IMG/VR virus record: IMGVR_UViG_3300029742_000283
Length of the DNA stretch: 8,229 nt
DNA from: a virus
Lineage: Duplodnaviria; Heunggongvirae; Uroviricota; Caudoviricetes
Direction: 5' to 3' (one strand)
Numbering within the stretch: the first letter of the stretch is position 1; each line of letters opens with the position of its first letter. The notes under the pieces were generated by a model, which saw nothing but the letters and a program-made list of their open reading frames with translations, ran no database searches and was not told the origin of the DNA. Positions 237 through 8,229 of this stretch are shown here, piece after piece. The position numbers and the translations under genes are program-made.

Positions 237-455
237 TCACATCCACATAATTTGCTGCCCTGACGGCAACGGGTGCGGCCTTACGGCGTGGACTTCTCCC
301 GGCTTCACGATGTATCGCTGTACCGACTCATAAGTGATGAACGTGGCACTGCAATTCACGTTCTGGCACTGATGATAACGCTCTTTTGTCGTGTCAGTGA
401 TATAGCGGCTTGTACGCGCATGTGCGGCATGCTGGCATAAAGGACAATGAAACAT
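237..455 (-). CDS. ogr: Ogr, zinc-finger late-gene transcriptional activator (72 aa)
   Basis: Translation MFHCPLCQHAAHARTSRYITDTTKERYHQCQNVNCSATFITYESVQRYIVKPGEVHAVRPHPLPSGQQIMWM matches my recollection of phage P2 Ogr, with a CxxC...CxxxxC zinc-binding motif. True start is the internal ATG at 455-453, preceded on the minus strand by AAGAGGTG (RBS, about 7 nt spacing); the 93-aa ORF-track version starting at 518 is an upstream in-frame extension that overlaps the promoter. Position after gene D matches P2 order. Confidence 0.9.
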   Translation of the reverse strand: MFHCPLCQHAAHARTSRYITDTTKERYHQCQNVNCSATFITYESVQRYIVKPGEVHAVRPHPLPSGQQIMWM

Positions 456-2193: not shown

Positions 2194-4641
2194 TTAACCG
2201 TCATGCATCATGCTGGCACGGGCGCGCGCACGTTTATCCCGCTCGTATTTTTCGAGCGCATCCTGTAACTGGCGGTCAAGCTGTGTCCCCGGCGCAGTAC
2301 CGCCCGTCAGGTTGATGTGATATTCGTTTTTACTCTGGTCCACATAAGAGCGACCAGCCGGTGCCGTGACCGGCTGGTAAGCCTGATAGCCTGCATAAGA
2401 GCTGGTCGCCGGAATATAACCACCTGTGCCATACGTGGCGGCATGAGTTCTGGCGGCAGTCTGGTCAAGTGCGTCAGACTCTTTGTTGATGACGCCGAGT
2501 TTTTCCAGTACCCAGTCAATACCGCTGCGCAGTTTGTTGAACGCATTAAGCGGCAGCATCAGCGCGTCAGCCAGTGCCTGCCCGAACATGACGCCAGTAT
2601 CACGGCAACGGTTCAGGGTGTCCTGGGTGGCTTTGACCGGGGCAATCAGGTTTTTAAACCACTGCCACGCGGCCTGTAACTTTTCGCCCAGCCAGTCAAA
2701 CACCGGCTTCAGTGGCGTGAACAGTTCTCCCACCGGCGCAAATGCCGCTTTCAGCCCTTCCACCACACCGCCAAAGAATGCGCTGACAGGCTCCCAGTAT
2801 TTACGGATAAGCAACGCCCCGGCGACAATGGCGGCCACCACAGCCACAACCGGCCAGCTAATCGCCCCGATGGCCGTCATAACAGCACTGCCAACCGTCG
2901 TGAAGATTGCCCCCATTGCGCCTGCTGCCGCGATGATGGCATTGATGCCAGTGATAACCGGCCAGGCTACGAGGCCAATGGCACCGATGACAGCAGTCAG
3001 CGCCAGTGCGCCACCGGCAATGAGGCCGATGGTTGACGCCAGTGATTTGTTTTTCTGGATCCAGCCATCGAGTTTTAACACATACTTTGTGGCCGTCTGT
3101 GTGAGATTACGCAGTGCGCCTTCCTGCTGGTCAAACAGGTCAGTCCCCACCGCCTCATAAGCGGACTGAAACTCCTTAAAGTCACCGCCGAGGTTATCCT
3201 GCATGATTTTAACCAGCTCTTCCGTTTTACCGTCCGAGGCTTTCAGCGTGGCGGTCAGCTTATCCAGTTTTCCGCTTGCTGCCGCTGCCAGTAAAACGTT
3301 CGCTGATTTCAGGGCTTCCTCACCAAAAATGGTTTTAAGGTATTCCCCCTTCTGAGACGTTCCCAGCTTGTGTTTATCAAAGCTGGCCTGAATCTCTTTC
3401 AGAATGGTGAACAACGGACGCATATTTCCCTTTTTGTCCGAGGTTTTAACGCCAAGCTCTTTGAGTGCATCCCATGCTTTTCCAGTCGGTGCCTGTAATC
3501 GGGTGACAACGGCACTGCTACCCGTACCCGCCATTGACCCCCTGATGTTATTGTCATGCAGCACACCTGTCATGGCCGCTGCCTGCTCAAGACTTACACC
3601 TGCCGTCCTCGCAACCGGCCCGAGGTAAGTCAGTGCATCACTGAGCCCCTGAAAATCAGCCGCCGACTTATTCATCGTTGCCGACAACACGTCGCCCACA
3701 TGGCTGACATCATCATTTGACAGTTGAAAGGATGCCTTAGTCCCCAGCAACAGTTGCGCGTTTTCTTCCATCGACCGCTGATTCGCCAGTGCCATATTCA
3801 GCGTGACCGGCGTTGCCGCCTGAATAGCCGCAGCATCTCCACCCGCTTTCGCAATGATAATCTGCGCACCGGCCGCATCATCCGCCGAGGCGGCGGTATT
3901 ATCGCCGAGCTGGCGCGCCTGCTTGCGGAGCGCGGCCATTTCGGCGGAGTCTTTTGCCACTCCGAGCACGGCCTGCAATTCTGAGTTTTTCTGCGCAAAC
4001 TCATAACCGGGCATCAGCAACTTAACTCCGGCCATCGTTCCCGCCGCCGCAATCCCCACACCGGCAGCGCCCACTGAGGCCATATTTCCGGCCAGTTCCT
4101 TTCCTGCCTGATAACGCTGTTTGACTGCGTTAAGTTTTGCCTGTTGTGCACTGACACGCGCCAGCGCGTCACGCTGACGATTAAGCTGTGCGGTGGTTTC
4201 ACTGATACGGTTTTTCAGCCCCTGCTCATCATGTGCAAGATTGCGGGTATTAATTCCCACAGCGGCCAGTTCCCGCTGCTGGCGTTTAACGGAATCCGTC
4301 AGGCGGTTATATTTCGCCTGTAAGTCCTCCGCCGCACGCTTTGCGGATTCCAGCACTTTCGCCTGAGCACGGGTCGGTCGTTCGGTGTTTTTAAACTGTG
4401 TGGCAAGGGCTTCGGCCTCCTGCCGTGCCTTTTCAAGTGCATGACCAGTCACGGCGAGCTGTGCACTGGTCTTGCGAAATCCCTCAATACGGGATGCCTG
4501 ACCGTTCAGCTCGCGCAGTGATTTTTGTGTTTCCCGGATATCCCCCGACAGCGTCTTGCTCGCTGTACGGATGGATTTAAACGGGCGGGATGCCTGGTCA
4601 ACAGCCCTGAGCAATACCTGTAATTTTACATTGTTACTCAT
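2194..4641 (-). CDS. T: Tail tape measure protein (gpT), 815 aa
   Basis: 815-aa ORF, same length as P2 gpT. N-terminal half is rich in predicted coiled coil (Q/A/R/E/K-rich); it has a long hydrophobic Ala/Gly/Ile-rich segment typical of tape measure proteins. The start overlaps the end of the E' frameshift product. Confidence 0.9.
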   Translation of the reverse strand: MSNNVKLQVLLRAVDQASRPFKSIRTASKTLSGDIRETQKSLRELNGQASRIEGFRKTSAQLAVTGHALEKARQEAEALATQFKNTERPTRAQAKVLESAKRAAEDLQAKYNRLTDSVKRQQRELAAVGINTRNLAHDEQGLKNRISETTAQLNRQRDALARVSAQQAKLNAVKQRYQAGKELAGNMASVGAAGVGIAAAGTMAGVKLLMPGYEFAQKNSELQAVLGVAKDSAEMAALRKQARQLGDNTAASADDAAGAQIIIAKAGGDAAAIQAATPVTLNMALANQRSMEENAQLLLGTKASFQLSNDDVSHVGDVLSATMNKSAADFQGLSDALTYLGPVARTAGVSLEQAAAMTGVLHDNNIRGSMAGTGSSAVVTRLQAPTGKAWDALKELGVKTSDKKGNMRPLFTILKEIQASFDKHKLGTSQKGEYLKTIFGEEALKSANVLLAAAASGKLDKLTATLKASDGKTEELVKIMQDNLGGDFKEFQSAYEAVGTDLFDQQEGALRNLTQTATKYVLKLDGWIQKNKSLASTIGLIAGGALALTAVIGAIGLVAWPVITGINAIIAAAGAMGAIFTTVGSAVMTAIGAISWPVVAVVAAIVAGALLIRKYWEPVSAFFGGVVEGLKAAFAPVGELFTPLKPVFDWLGEKLQAAWQWFKNLIAPVKATQDTLNRCRDTGVMFGQALADALMLPLNAFNKLRSGIDWVLEKLGVINKESDALDQTAARTHAATYGTGGYIPATSSYAGYQAYQPVTAPAGRSYVDQSKNEYHINLTGGTAPGTQLDRQLQDALEKYERDKRARARASMMHDG

Positions 4642-5648: not shown

Positions 5649-6839
5649 TTAATTGCTGTTAACCGAGGTGACCAGATTTGCCAGGTATTTATCGGTAATA
5701 CGCTGGCGCAGGGTCAGGTTTTCAAGAGGAGGCACCGGGGTATAGTCGTAGTCGATATACAGTTTTCCGGCCTTAAGGGTTTCCGCATCGTTGGATTCTT
5801 CGCTGAACCAGCATGAGCCATCCACGATATAGCCGTTTGTTTTCAGCTCACGGAATTTGGCATTGATGCCGTCAACGATGTCGCGAATCAGCGTTGCGGT
5901 GATGGGCTTGTCCACCGCCCACATGTGCGCCTCAGCCATCGTGTCGGCCAGCACCTGCGCGGTGCGGGTGTAGTTTTCAAAGAGGAACAGCGGGTCATCA
6001 GAGCAGGTACGGTTACCCCAGAATCGGAAACCGTCGCGTCGAATCAGCGTTGTGACGCCAGACTCGTTAAGCAGGTCAGCATCGGTACCGGACTCCTGCA
6101 AATCCCAGAATACGGACGCGCTGATGCCGGTAACACCGTTTACCCCGACGTTGGACAGCGTTTTATGCCAGCCCTGCTCCTGGTCGATTCTGGCACGCAG
6201 ACCCAGCGCACGGGCGGTGGCATACGCGGTGGCGGTGGTACTGGTGACCGTATCCCATGCGAGGAAATCCGGCCAGATGACCATCAGCTCACGCTGACTG
6301 AAATTCTGGCGGTAGGCTTTCACCTCGGAAATGGTTTTACAGCCCCATGCGCTGATATACCCGAAAGCGCGCAGCTTCTGGCAGACTGATGCCAGTGCAA
6401 CAGCCACCTCTTTGGTGTCCAGTCCCGGCACACCGAGAATACGCGGTTTAACACCGGTTACCGACTCTGCCGCCAGCAGGGCTTTCAGTCCGGTATACTG
6501 ACCGTTTTCGTCAGTGGTGCCGATGATATTGGAAACGGTCTGCGCGAGTTTCGTTTCTTCGTCGTCGCCGGTGCCGTCTTCCACACGCACGACAACGGTG
6601 ACCGGTTTTGACTGGTCAGCGATGGCCTGCAGCGACGCCGCCAGCGTGCCTTTTTTACCGGCCTTTGCAATTGCGCTCTGCACATTGGTAATCAGCACAG
6701 GTTTATTGAGGGGGAAGGTTTCCGCATCCGCATCGCTGGCCGTGCAGACCATGCCGACAATGGCAGTGGATACGGTGGAAATGACGCGGGTGCCGTCGTT
6801 AATCTCCAGCACCTGCACGCCGTGATGATAGTCACTCAT
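5649..6839 (-). CDS. FI: Contractile tail sheath protein (gpFI), 396 aa
   Basis: 396-aa ORF beginning MSDYHHGVQVLEINDGTRVISTVSTAIVGMV..., which I recognise as near-identical to P2 gpFI. RBS GGAG about 8 nt upstream of the ATG at 6839. Confidence 0.92.
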   Translation of the reverse strand: MSDYHHGVQVLEINDGTRVISTVSTAIVGMVCTASDADAETFPLNKPVLITNVQSAIAKAGKKGTLAASLQAIADQSKPVTVVVRVEDGTGDDEETKLAQTVSNIIGTTDENGQYTGLKALLAAESVTGVKPRILGVPGLDTKEVAVALASVCQKLRAFGYISAWGCKTISEVKAYRQNFSQRELMVIWPDFLAWDTVTSTTATAYATARALGLRARIDQEQGWHKTLSNVGVNGVTGISASVFWDLQESGTDADLLNESGVTTLIRRDGFRFWGNRTCSDDPLFLFENYTRTAQVLADTMAEAHMWAVDKPITATLIRDIVDGINAKFRELKTNGYIVDGSCWFSEESNDAETLKAGKLYIDYDYTPVPPLENLTLRQRITDKYLANLVTSVNSN

Positions 6840-6864
6840 CCGTTTAACTCCGTGGTTAATGGGT

Positions 6865-6930
6865 GCAACTATTTTCTGTTGTGCAGAGCATGAGACGCTA
6901 TTTGACCTGGCTGGTCAGTGGATGAAACAA
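6865..6930 (-). promoter_or_regulatory. Candidate Ogr-dependent late promoter for the FI operon (P_F equivalent)
   Basis: Inference from P2 architecture, where a late promoter precedes FI. Seen in sequence: imperfect dyad tgg-N12-aca (6912-6929) resembling the TGT-N12-ACA element of P2 late promoters, with an A/T-rich -10-like hexamer (minus AGAAAATA, about 6870-6877) downstream. Match is imperfect. Confidence 0.3.
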
Positions 6931-6935
6931 CAGAT

Positions 6936-6961
6936 AAAAAAGGCGGGCAATCAGCCCGCCT
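6936..6961 (-). terminator. Intrinsic terminator downstream of the tail fiber / tfa transcription unit
   Basis: Seen in sequence: stem aggcgggc (6941-6948) / gcccgcct (6954-6961), loop aatca; on the minus strand the stem is followed by TTTTT (6940-6936). Lies between tfa and FI, where P2 separates the V-G and FI-D late operons. Confidence 0.6.
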
Positions 6962-7159
6962 GCGGTATTTCCGACCATTCAGGATTTGCAGGATCCACAC
7001 GACCAGAAAGACAGCTACTGATTAATCAGGCCAATAAACACATGAACACTAAGCAATAGCCCGGCAGGTCTGAGGTACTGGCGCAATATAATTTGTGGCT
7101 GGATTACCTGTACGCACCGGAGCGGTCCGATACTTCCGGTACGTCAGATATTGAATGGT

Positions 7160-7570
7160 CTACGCCTCCGGCAGTTCAGGCCAGATGACATCCGGTGCGG
7201 TGCTGGTATCTGTTGCCGTCACAGCGTCGATATAATCCAGCACAACGTTAAGTCGGGTAGTTTCCTCTTGCGTCAGTTTGCGCCCGGCCTGCAGCTTTAA
7301 CTGAATCACGCTGATATTGGCCATTGCTGCGTCTAACAGCGACTGTTTTTTCTGTTCAGCGTCAGCTACCAGTTCATCATGAGAACGTTCCTGAGTGGGT
7401 GGTGCAGTAAATCCCCCTTCTGAATACCCCCAGCCGATTCCGGGCTGCTCACTGATATCAGAAATATTAATGAGCTGCTGATTATCCGGCACTGTGAATT
7501 CAGCCTCGCCATCCCAGACAATGACATTCACAACCATCCCATTTTCAATAACTGCATATGACGTATTCAT
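7160..7570 (-). CDS. Tail fiber assembly protein (Tfa-family chaperone), about 136 aa
   Basis: C-terminal motif ...DAVTATDTSTAPDVIWPELPEA resembles the conserved C-terminus of lambda/P2-type Tfa proteins. Preferred start is the ATG at 7570-7568, which overlaps the tail-fiber stop as TAATG and has GAGGAG 8 nt upstream; the ORF-track start at 7594 (MYYRGVCIM...) is a less likely upstream extension. Shorter than the 175 aa I recall for P2 gpG, so likely a different Tfa subtype. Confidence 0.75.
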   Translation of the reverse strand: MNTSYAVIENGMVVNVIVWDGEAEFTVPDNQQLINISDISEQPGIGWGYSEGGFTAPPTQERSHDELVADAEQKKQSLLDAAMANISVIQLKLQAGRKLTQEETTRLNVVLDYIDAVTATDTSTAPDVIWPELPEA

Positions 7571-8229
7571 TATGCAAACTCCTCGATAATACAAATCCCT
7601 GAAGCGCCTTTCCCGCCCGTCATACTGGTTCCGCTATAACCGGCATCGTATGCGCCACCTCCGCCTGAACCATATGCTTTACCGATAACACCACCGCCAG
7701 CGCCTGCACGTCCACCGCCGCCCCAGTGCGATGTTCCGCCTTCACCGCTGACGCTGATATTTCCGGACTGACCGTCGCCTCCATCTCCACCAGTGATGCG
7801 GATATCGCCAGTACTCGGCACACCTCCGTTACCGCCGTTTGTGTTTGTAACACCCGCTTTCCCGCCACCTTCGCCACCAGGAGCAATTAACGATGCGAAT
7901 ACGCTATTCCCGCCCCTGGTGCCGTTCGTCGCACTAACACCACCGGCCCCACCTGCGCCGATAGTGACTGGATAACTATTCTGTGTCGGGGTCATTATTG
8001 AAATTATTGTTCCACCGGCCCCACCGCCAGCACCGAAAAACGTTTCATTATTGGATGCAGCCTTGCAGCCGCCCCCTCCGCCACCGCCGCCCGTTATTGT
8101 GACCCTGATCCGTTTTGTTCCTGGCGTCGGGGTGTATGTACCTGATGAGGTGAAAACCCGGGTATTCAGCCAGCGTCCAACGTATCCACTTGCATCGCTC
8201 AGACCAAGATATTGAATAACCGCCTGTGT
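7570..8229 (-). CDS. Tail fiber protein, C-terminal part (5'-truncated by the window edge), glycine-rich
   Basis: The frame is open from the window edge (8229) to the stop at 7572-7570; I translated 7996-8229 by hand and found no stop (…LNTRVFTSSGTYTPTPGTKRIRVTITGGGGGGGGCKAASNNETFFGAGGGAGGTIISIMTPTQNS…). Product is dominated by Gly-rich repeats and is immediately followed by a coupled tfa gene. Occupies the position of P2 gene H, but the C-terminal region does not look like what I recall of P2 gpH. Confidence 0.7.
   Translation of the reverse strand, partial: TQAVIQYLGLSDASGYVGRWLNTRVFTSSGTYTPTPGTKRIRVTITGGGGGGGGCKAASNNETFFGAGGGAGGTIISIMTPTQNSYPVTIGAGGAGGVSATNGTRGGNSVFASLIAPGGEGGGKAGVTNTNGGNGGVPSTGDIRITGGDGGDGQSGNISVSGEGGTSHWGGGGRAGAGGGVIGKAYGSGGGGAYDAGYSGTSMTGGKGASGICIIEEFA

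Follow-up and report, generated by a model that had tools for sequence, protein, structure and literature searches.

An empty Z/fun cargo slot and an apparent tail-fibre module replacement scar between tfa and FI in a P2-like prophage

The DNA analyzed here, called the window, is a stretch of 8,229 nucleotides (IMG/VR record IMGVR_UViG_3300029742_000283) that holds the late tail region of a P2-like prophage. Between its tail-fibre assembly gene tfa (stop codon at 7162-7160) and its sheath gene FI (ATG at 6839) lies an interval of 320 bp (6840-7159), which most probably (about 85%) is an empty P2-type Z/fun cargo slot whose interval was lengthened by replacement of the adjoining tail-fibre module from an invertible-type cassette. 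In the interval, 198 of the 320 bp (about 60–62%) are gene debris, made up of 156 bp from a second tail-fibre assembly gene in inverted orientation (tfa') and 42 bp of a P2-type G gene, and this extra length of some 200 bp is read from its homologies as a scar of module replacement. A preliminary description had already noted an interval of about 320 bp with an intrinsic terminator and a candidate late promoter, which agrees with the 320 bp, the hairpin at 6961-6941 and the 96 nt identical to P2 found here. It had regarded the interval as an unoccupied spacer, and this is right to the extent that there is no accessory gene and wrong in that about 62% of it is tfa' and G pseudogene debris. The features that the argument needs are as follows.

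Ending at 7570, minus strand: distal part of the tail-fibre gene H, with a glycine-rich domain (PF21722).
7160-7537, minus strand: tfa, the predicted live tail-fibre assembly gene, 125 aa, Caudo_TAP (PF02413, 76.6 bits).
7004-7188, plus strand: tfa' remnant, the final ~62 codons of a second tail-fibre assembly gene that lies inverted, recognized by protein, profile and DNA homology.
7003/7004, no strand: junction J1 between the imported block (tfa' side) and the resident P2 backbone (G side), with possible microhomology TTCTG(GTC).
6962-7003, minus strand: remnant of a P2-type G (tfa) gene, last 13 codons in forward orientation, 41/43 identity to G 3' ends.
6961/6962, no strand: empty cargo slot, the G end being fused to the terminator with 9 bp (CAATAAATA) gone.
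6935-6961, minus strand: predicted intrinsic terminator (8-bp stem, 5-nt loop, T6) that would end the V-W-J-I-H-tfa late transcript.
6840-6934, minus strand: predicted PF late-promoter region and FI leader, from identity with P2; the transcription start is a deduced one.
6859-7059, plus strand: non-genic 66-aa ORF that starts opposite the FI leader, in antisense, passes the terminator hairpin and the G remnant and finishes in the tfa' frame.
5649-6839, minus strand: sheath gene FI (PF04984, PF17482, PF22671).
237-455, minus strand: ogr, with a product essentially the same as P2 Ogr.

All genes flanking the interval are on the minus strand, in the order H distal part, tfa, interval, FI, then FII, E/E', T, U and D, and finally ogr; an AGAGGAG motif precedes the tfa ATG. 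The same gene order, including the same tfa, is seen in the RefSeq annotation of an Escherichia coli 19M19 prophage (94.6% identical), and the best complete E. coli genome reaches 97.5% identity across the window. The 19M19 copy of tfa is annotated as intact (125 aa), whereas in E. coli STN0717-20 (L006, 2521-2847) the live-side tfa is itself flagged by PGAP as a pseudogene without its N-terminus. At the other end of the window, some close prophage relatives cease to align at position 146 while others run on to position 1, and all 5426 E. coli genomes show some match to the window; the prophage therefore probably ends near 146 (the attR side, just beyond ogr and its terminator), with host DNA past it. 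Within the tape-measure gene T, a sharply bounded block at 3200-3800 differs from two relatives (L001 and L012) by 47–64 positions per 200 bp compared with 0–15 elsewhere, and two other relatives (L009 and L010) are near-identical to the window across it; this block is a recombinant patch.

The P2 genome has two well-documented variable loci (PMC9122126), and the Z/fun locus is one of its two classical hot-spots (PMC9122126; bioRxiv 10.1101/2024.10.15.618418). Aligning the interval with those of P2 and P2-like prophages, as the preliminary description had proposed, located both flanks of the cargo island in the window (7003-6962 on the G side, 6961 onward on the terminator side). In P2 these two flanks are 1023 bp apart with the Z/fun island between them (Z/fun at L003 1751-2296, as had been stated for the P2 G-FI interval), and in APEC O78 the distance grows to 2056 bp and takes in three genes. 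Since P2 and APEC O78 carry their cargo exactly there, the insertion point must lie between the G stop codon and the terminator stem. The P2 locus resembles that of the window in its backbone position, in its terminator hairpin and in an identical PF region and FI start; in contrast to the 1.0-kb island of P2 and the 2.1 kb of cargo at the same point in APEC O78, the window has no accessory gene at the slot, where the flanks are joined directly with a loss of 9 bp and with no credible ORF. Judged from its sequence, then, the Z/fun slot of this prophage is truly empty, in agreement with the earlier claim that it holds no cargo.

The closest model for such a slot is the prophage of strain NCTC11151 (NZ_LR134031), with which the window aligns without a break from 7003 to 3820 (L008, 96.9%) and which shares the empty slot, the terminator, PF and FI. 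In NCTC11151 an intact 175-aa P2-type G ends in TAA, followed by ATA and then by the terminator, PF and FI, so that a clean empty slot measures 128 bp; up to 10 E. coli genomes have a clean empty slot with a P2-type G, and this is the one that was inspected. Unlike NCTC11151, the window keeps only the last 13 codons of G together with a different, imported tfa. The remnant reads RVDPANPEWSEIPQ, and P2-type G ends in RVDPANPEWPEMPQ followed by the stop codon; on the minus strand, 7003-6961 (42–43 nt) matches the P2-type G 3' end of about 500 E. coli genomes at 41 of 43 positions. The 9 bp CAATAAATA, which include the old G stop, are missing from the window between CA repeats and are present in NCTC11151, in STN0717-20 and in three of the five IMG/VR contigs that carry J1. 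The view of the preliminary description, a plain spacer in which nothing but a terminator and a promoter is to be found, accounts for the lack of an intact gene and for the terminator and PF region, but it is practically untenable in view of the 198 extra bp of tfa' and G fragments, a clean empty slot being 128 bp long.

The larger part of this excess is the tfa' remnant. In the plus-strand frame ending at 7188 it reads ...ERQLLINQANKHMNTKQ*PGRSEVLAQYNLWLDYLYAPERSDTSGTSDIEWSTPPAVQAR*, and compared with intact genes it has lost the N-terminal ~85 codons, reads TAG where they have TGG (7057-7059) and lacks 21 bp near 7070/7071. Against the C-terminal 70 residues encoded by the intact tfa' of the P2-like phage KC618326, it shows 67% amino-acid identity (E 2e-31). 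With the stop read as W, the PF02413 (Caudo_TAP) profile scores 27 bits (cutoff 22.1) over positions 71-130 only; because the match is confined to these positions and needs the stop to be read through, the remnant is counted as a gene fragment and not as a Caudo_TAP member protein. At the DNA level the tfa' side is 80.7% identical over 363 nt to KC618326 (L002) and 88.9% identical over 693 nt to the yfdK region of a CPS-53-like region in strain ACN001 (L007; aligned from 7677 to 7006), in which tfa' (yfdK) comes next, then an H'v of the gp53-like kind and a recombinase gene that is truncated. Within the interval, high identity to P2-type phages (97%) is limited to 6962-6840, and the rest matches genes annotated as tail fiber assembly protein at 74–79%. 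RefSeq genomes with an identical interval have a second, partial tfa annotated on the opposite strand (by PGAP, a tfa pseudogene with the N-terminus missing). The 3' ends of tfa and tfa' overlap tail-to-tail by 29 bp, and the same overlap is found in KC618326. The remnant also contains a perfect 12-nt palindrome (CTGATTAATCAG, 7018-7029) located 15 nt from J1, which encodes LINQ, a conserved motif of tail-fibre assembly proteins, identically on either strand.

Convergent chaperone genes of this kind belong to the invertible tail-fibre cassettes that switch host range, such as Mu G/gin, P1 C/cin and e14 P/pin. KC618326 has the order H, tfa, tfa' (inverted), H'v (inverted), invertase and FI, with the segment bounded by 31-nt perfect inverted repeats, which is the Mu-G/e14-P design. 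Its DNA invertase (L002, 4909-5460) is annotated as only 495 bp and the sequence runs on in another frame to the PF region, which suggests that the gene is frameshifted and possibly inactive, or else that the sequence contains an error. Invertible tail-fibre loci are also found in P2-like prophages of EPEC, where inversion has been demonstrated (PMC4272514). The window shares with these cassettes the convergent tfa/tfa' pair with its 29-bp 3' overlap and the homologous Caudo_TAP C-termini; unlike them, it does not have two full sets of alternative tip and chaperone in opposite orientation, H'v being absent and tfa' reduced to ~62 codons with a nonsense codon. Between tfa and FI there is no ORF of a Hin/Gin-family serine invertase, which relatives possess. 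The 26-nt crossover site of KC618326 has no match in the window at up to 3 mismatches, a looser pattern of the crossover core occurs twice in the window against 0.8 expected (not significant), and the region 6800-8229 holds no suitable inverted repeats. With tfa' truncated and interrupted, and with no H'v, crossover sites or serine invertase, nothing in the window is able to invert.

A degenerate, lone crossover-like sequence was seen at about 8195-8220. Two relatives that carry the scar (L001 and L006) begin their homology to the window exactly at 8208, which is the centre of TTATTCAATATC-TT-GGTCTGAGCGAT (window 8195-8229, minus strand, encoding ..QYLGL..), a sequence that matches 17 of the 26 positions of the KC618326 crossover site and has only 21 nt of window upstream of it. 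Thus, a crossover site that has since decayed may mark where the variable fibre-tip module begins on its left.

The two kinds of homology meet at J1. Left of 7004 the window aligns to tfa/tfa' cassettes, and right of 7003 it aligns to the empty-slot prophage. We infer from this arrangement that the recipient would have been a P2-type phage with an empty Z/fun slot, its G already abutting the terminator, in which the H-distal/G region was exchanged for a block from a Mu-G/e14-P-type invertible cassette. The imported block would have comprised the distal domain of H, tfa and, convergent with tfa, a 3' portion of tfa', with its right end inside tfa' at 7004, and it would have been joined to the last 13 codons of the resident G at 7003 by illegitimate or microhomology-mediated recombination. 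Decay probably followed, with the nonsense codon and the 21-bp deletion in tfa' and the 9-bp deletion at the joint of G and terminator. J1 itself could have arisen at import or could result from a later deletion, the search having turned up no intermediate for either course, and the block may have arrived in more than one step, since no donor more than 90% identical across J1 was found.

A different history would have the ancestor carry a complete cassette (tfa', H'v, gix and invertase) between tfa and FI, from which a single deletion running from the middle of tfa' to beyond the invertase left the present interval. In favour of this history, KC618326 and at least 268 of the 5426 complete E. 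coli genomes have the full cassette beside FI at exactly the same position, and the window preserves the tail-to-tail overlap of tfa and tfa'. However, what lies downstream of J1 is a forward P2-type G 3' end fused to the backbone terminator, as in the empty-slot prophages. KC618326 has neither a G remnant nor a terminator after its invertase, its homology to the window resuming only at 6930, and for this reason it is considered unlikely that the interval arose purely by deletion, in situ, from a cassette already resident there. Moreover, among the matches listed, those that start at the G remnant come from genomes that are also listed as scar carriers, and the expected intermediate (full cassette followed by G remnant) was not seen among the inspected matches from complete E. 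coli genomes.

The import of a tail-fibre module, which is the preferred reading, finds a parallel in E. coli CV839-06. The block of the window from 8229 to 7177 (the glycine-rich, PF21722-bearing H-distal part plus tfa) is 99.1% identical to a CV839-06 prophage (L014, 3501-4553) whose sheath gene is only 67.5% identical to that of the window and which has no tfa' debris. The presence of a near-identical block in a different backbone without debris indicates that the tail-fibre module is mobile and that its right breakpoint varies. The CV839-06 homology stops 17 nt short of the tfa stop codon, and this end point in another backbone points to an independent placement of the same receptor-binding module.

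Of 5426 complete E. coli genomes, about 34–37 have the scar. The 32-mer spanning J1 was recovered, as an exact match, from 5 IMG/VR contigs and is absent among GTDB species representatives. Every scar carrier inspected shares J1, the TAG codon and the 21-bp deletion, and for this reason the scar appears to have had a single origin. The 19M19 and STN0717-20 prophages are examples, being identical to the window in these three features and annotated by PGAP with a "tail fiber assembly protein, incomplete"; STN0717-20 differs in that its otherwise identical scar retains the 9 bp lost in the window.

In the scarred interval, the late H-tfa transcript would cross ~200 nt of non-coding debris and halt at the backbone terminator, after which the Ogr-dependent promoter PF would drive FI-FII-E-T-U-D; the debris would have no function of its own. 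The terminator is predicted from a hairpin at 6961-6941 on the minus strand (8-bp stem with 7 G-C pairs) followed by TTTTTT, which is the G+C-rich hairpin and T run on the transcribed strand expected of Rho-independent termination; its fold is of -20.2 kcal/mol (z = -2.2), and the same hairpin is found in P2, downstream of Z/fun, and in the empty-slot prophage. For PF, the pattern sought was a weak -10 promoter in front of FI with a TGT-N12-ACA dyad that has its centre near -55, following P2 PF and the late-promoter consensus (PMC3931495). A TGT-N12-CCA sequence at 6929-6912 has one mismatch to this Ogr-type dyad, a motif that the window contains no more often than chance predicts (32 occurrences, 38 expected), and a -10-like hexamer GAAAAT (6876-6871, minus strand) and a GGAG ribosome-binding site for FI (6851-6848) are also present. 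The putative promoter is supported mainly by the 100% identity with P2 over the 96 nt that precede the FI ATG, which is stronger than the dyad motif.

It might still be supposed that the interval encodes a functional small product, either the 66-aa ORF (6859-7059), a 43-aa minus-strand ORF (7000-6869) or a small or antisense RNA, as both ORFs exist and three relatives show zero differences in the interval. This is very improbable. The 66-aa ORF, which the preliminary description had rightly dismissed as a non-credible frame spanning the hairpin, is a chimera that ends in the tfa' frame at the very TAG that inactivates tfa'; neither ORF matches a Pfam family, and a scan of 6600-7400 on both strands found no sigma-70 promoter. 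A search of 6700-7300 against Rfam 15 at E <= 10 gave sub-threshold chance matches only, the best with 19.9 bits against a gathering score of 81.3. Nor is the interval specially conserved, and the arrangement does not extend beyond some 34 genomes of E. coli. Purifying selection on the interval was considered and rejected, as the identical blocks continue well into FI, other relatives differ normally (10–18 differing positions, gaps counted, in the 200-bp bin 6800-6999) and the differences along the window are patchy, in the manner of a mosaic.

Equally doubtful is a co-option of the debris, whether of the antisense tfa' fragment, which may form an imperfect hairpin with the tfa 3' end in the late mRNA, or of the 66-aa ORF, for instance as a 3'-UTR stabilizer, as an antisense regulator of chaperone expression or as a homology patch promoting further cassette capture. 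When the inverted homology of tfa and tfa' was folded as RNA (7345-7000), it gave a long imperfect hairpin with z = -1.6, which is not significant. As far as sequence alone can tell, the debris may be transcribed in the lysogen.

The preliminary description had counted evidence of an insertion remnant against its own reading, and the tfa'/G debris is indeed a remnant, yet one that stems from the adjoining tail-fibre module; it is no leftover of defence or conversion cargo that was once present. Because it derives from this neighbouring module, the conclusion that the slot holds no novel system stands. A debris-bearing empty slot is ordinary phage mosaicism of a kind already described. The Z/fun hotspot has been characterized as "mixed purpose", since it houses defence-like cargo as well as tail-fibre and tfa genes that have been swapped, frequently together with a DNA invertase (bioRxiv 10.1101/2024.10.15.618418); the same study reports a third hot-spot, which lies between the tail genes and the repressor gene. 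That P2 tail-fibre genes are exchanged horizontally has been known since 1992 (Haggard-Ljungquist et al., cited in PMC13100340).

The result is thus a negative one with a precise map: the prophage of the window carries neither defence nor conversion cargo at its Z/fun slot, and the slot can be defined to the nucleotide as the succession of G stop, ATA and terminator stem. Since this slot is empty, a hunt for novel systems should turn to the old/tin-side hot-spot, which is in the gpA-to-portal region, outside the window. How long the intergenic stretch is says little about whether the Z/fun locus is occupied, because exchange of the tail-fibre module leaves chaperone-gene debris alongside it. 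The J1 scar offers a handy marker by which one family of P2-like prophages in E. coli can be traced as a lineage, and the interval as a whole provides a small worked example of how tail-fibre modules of invertible cassettes become fixed in phages that do not invert them.
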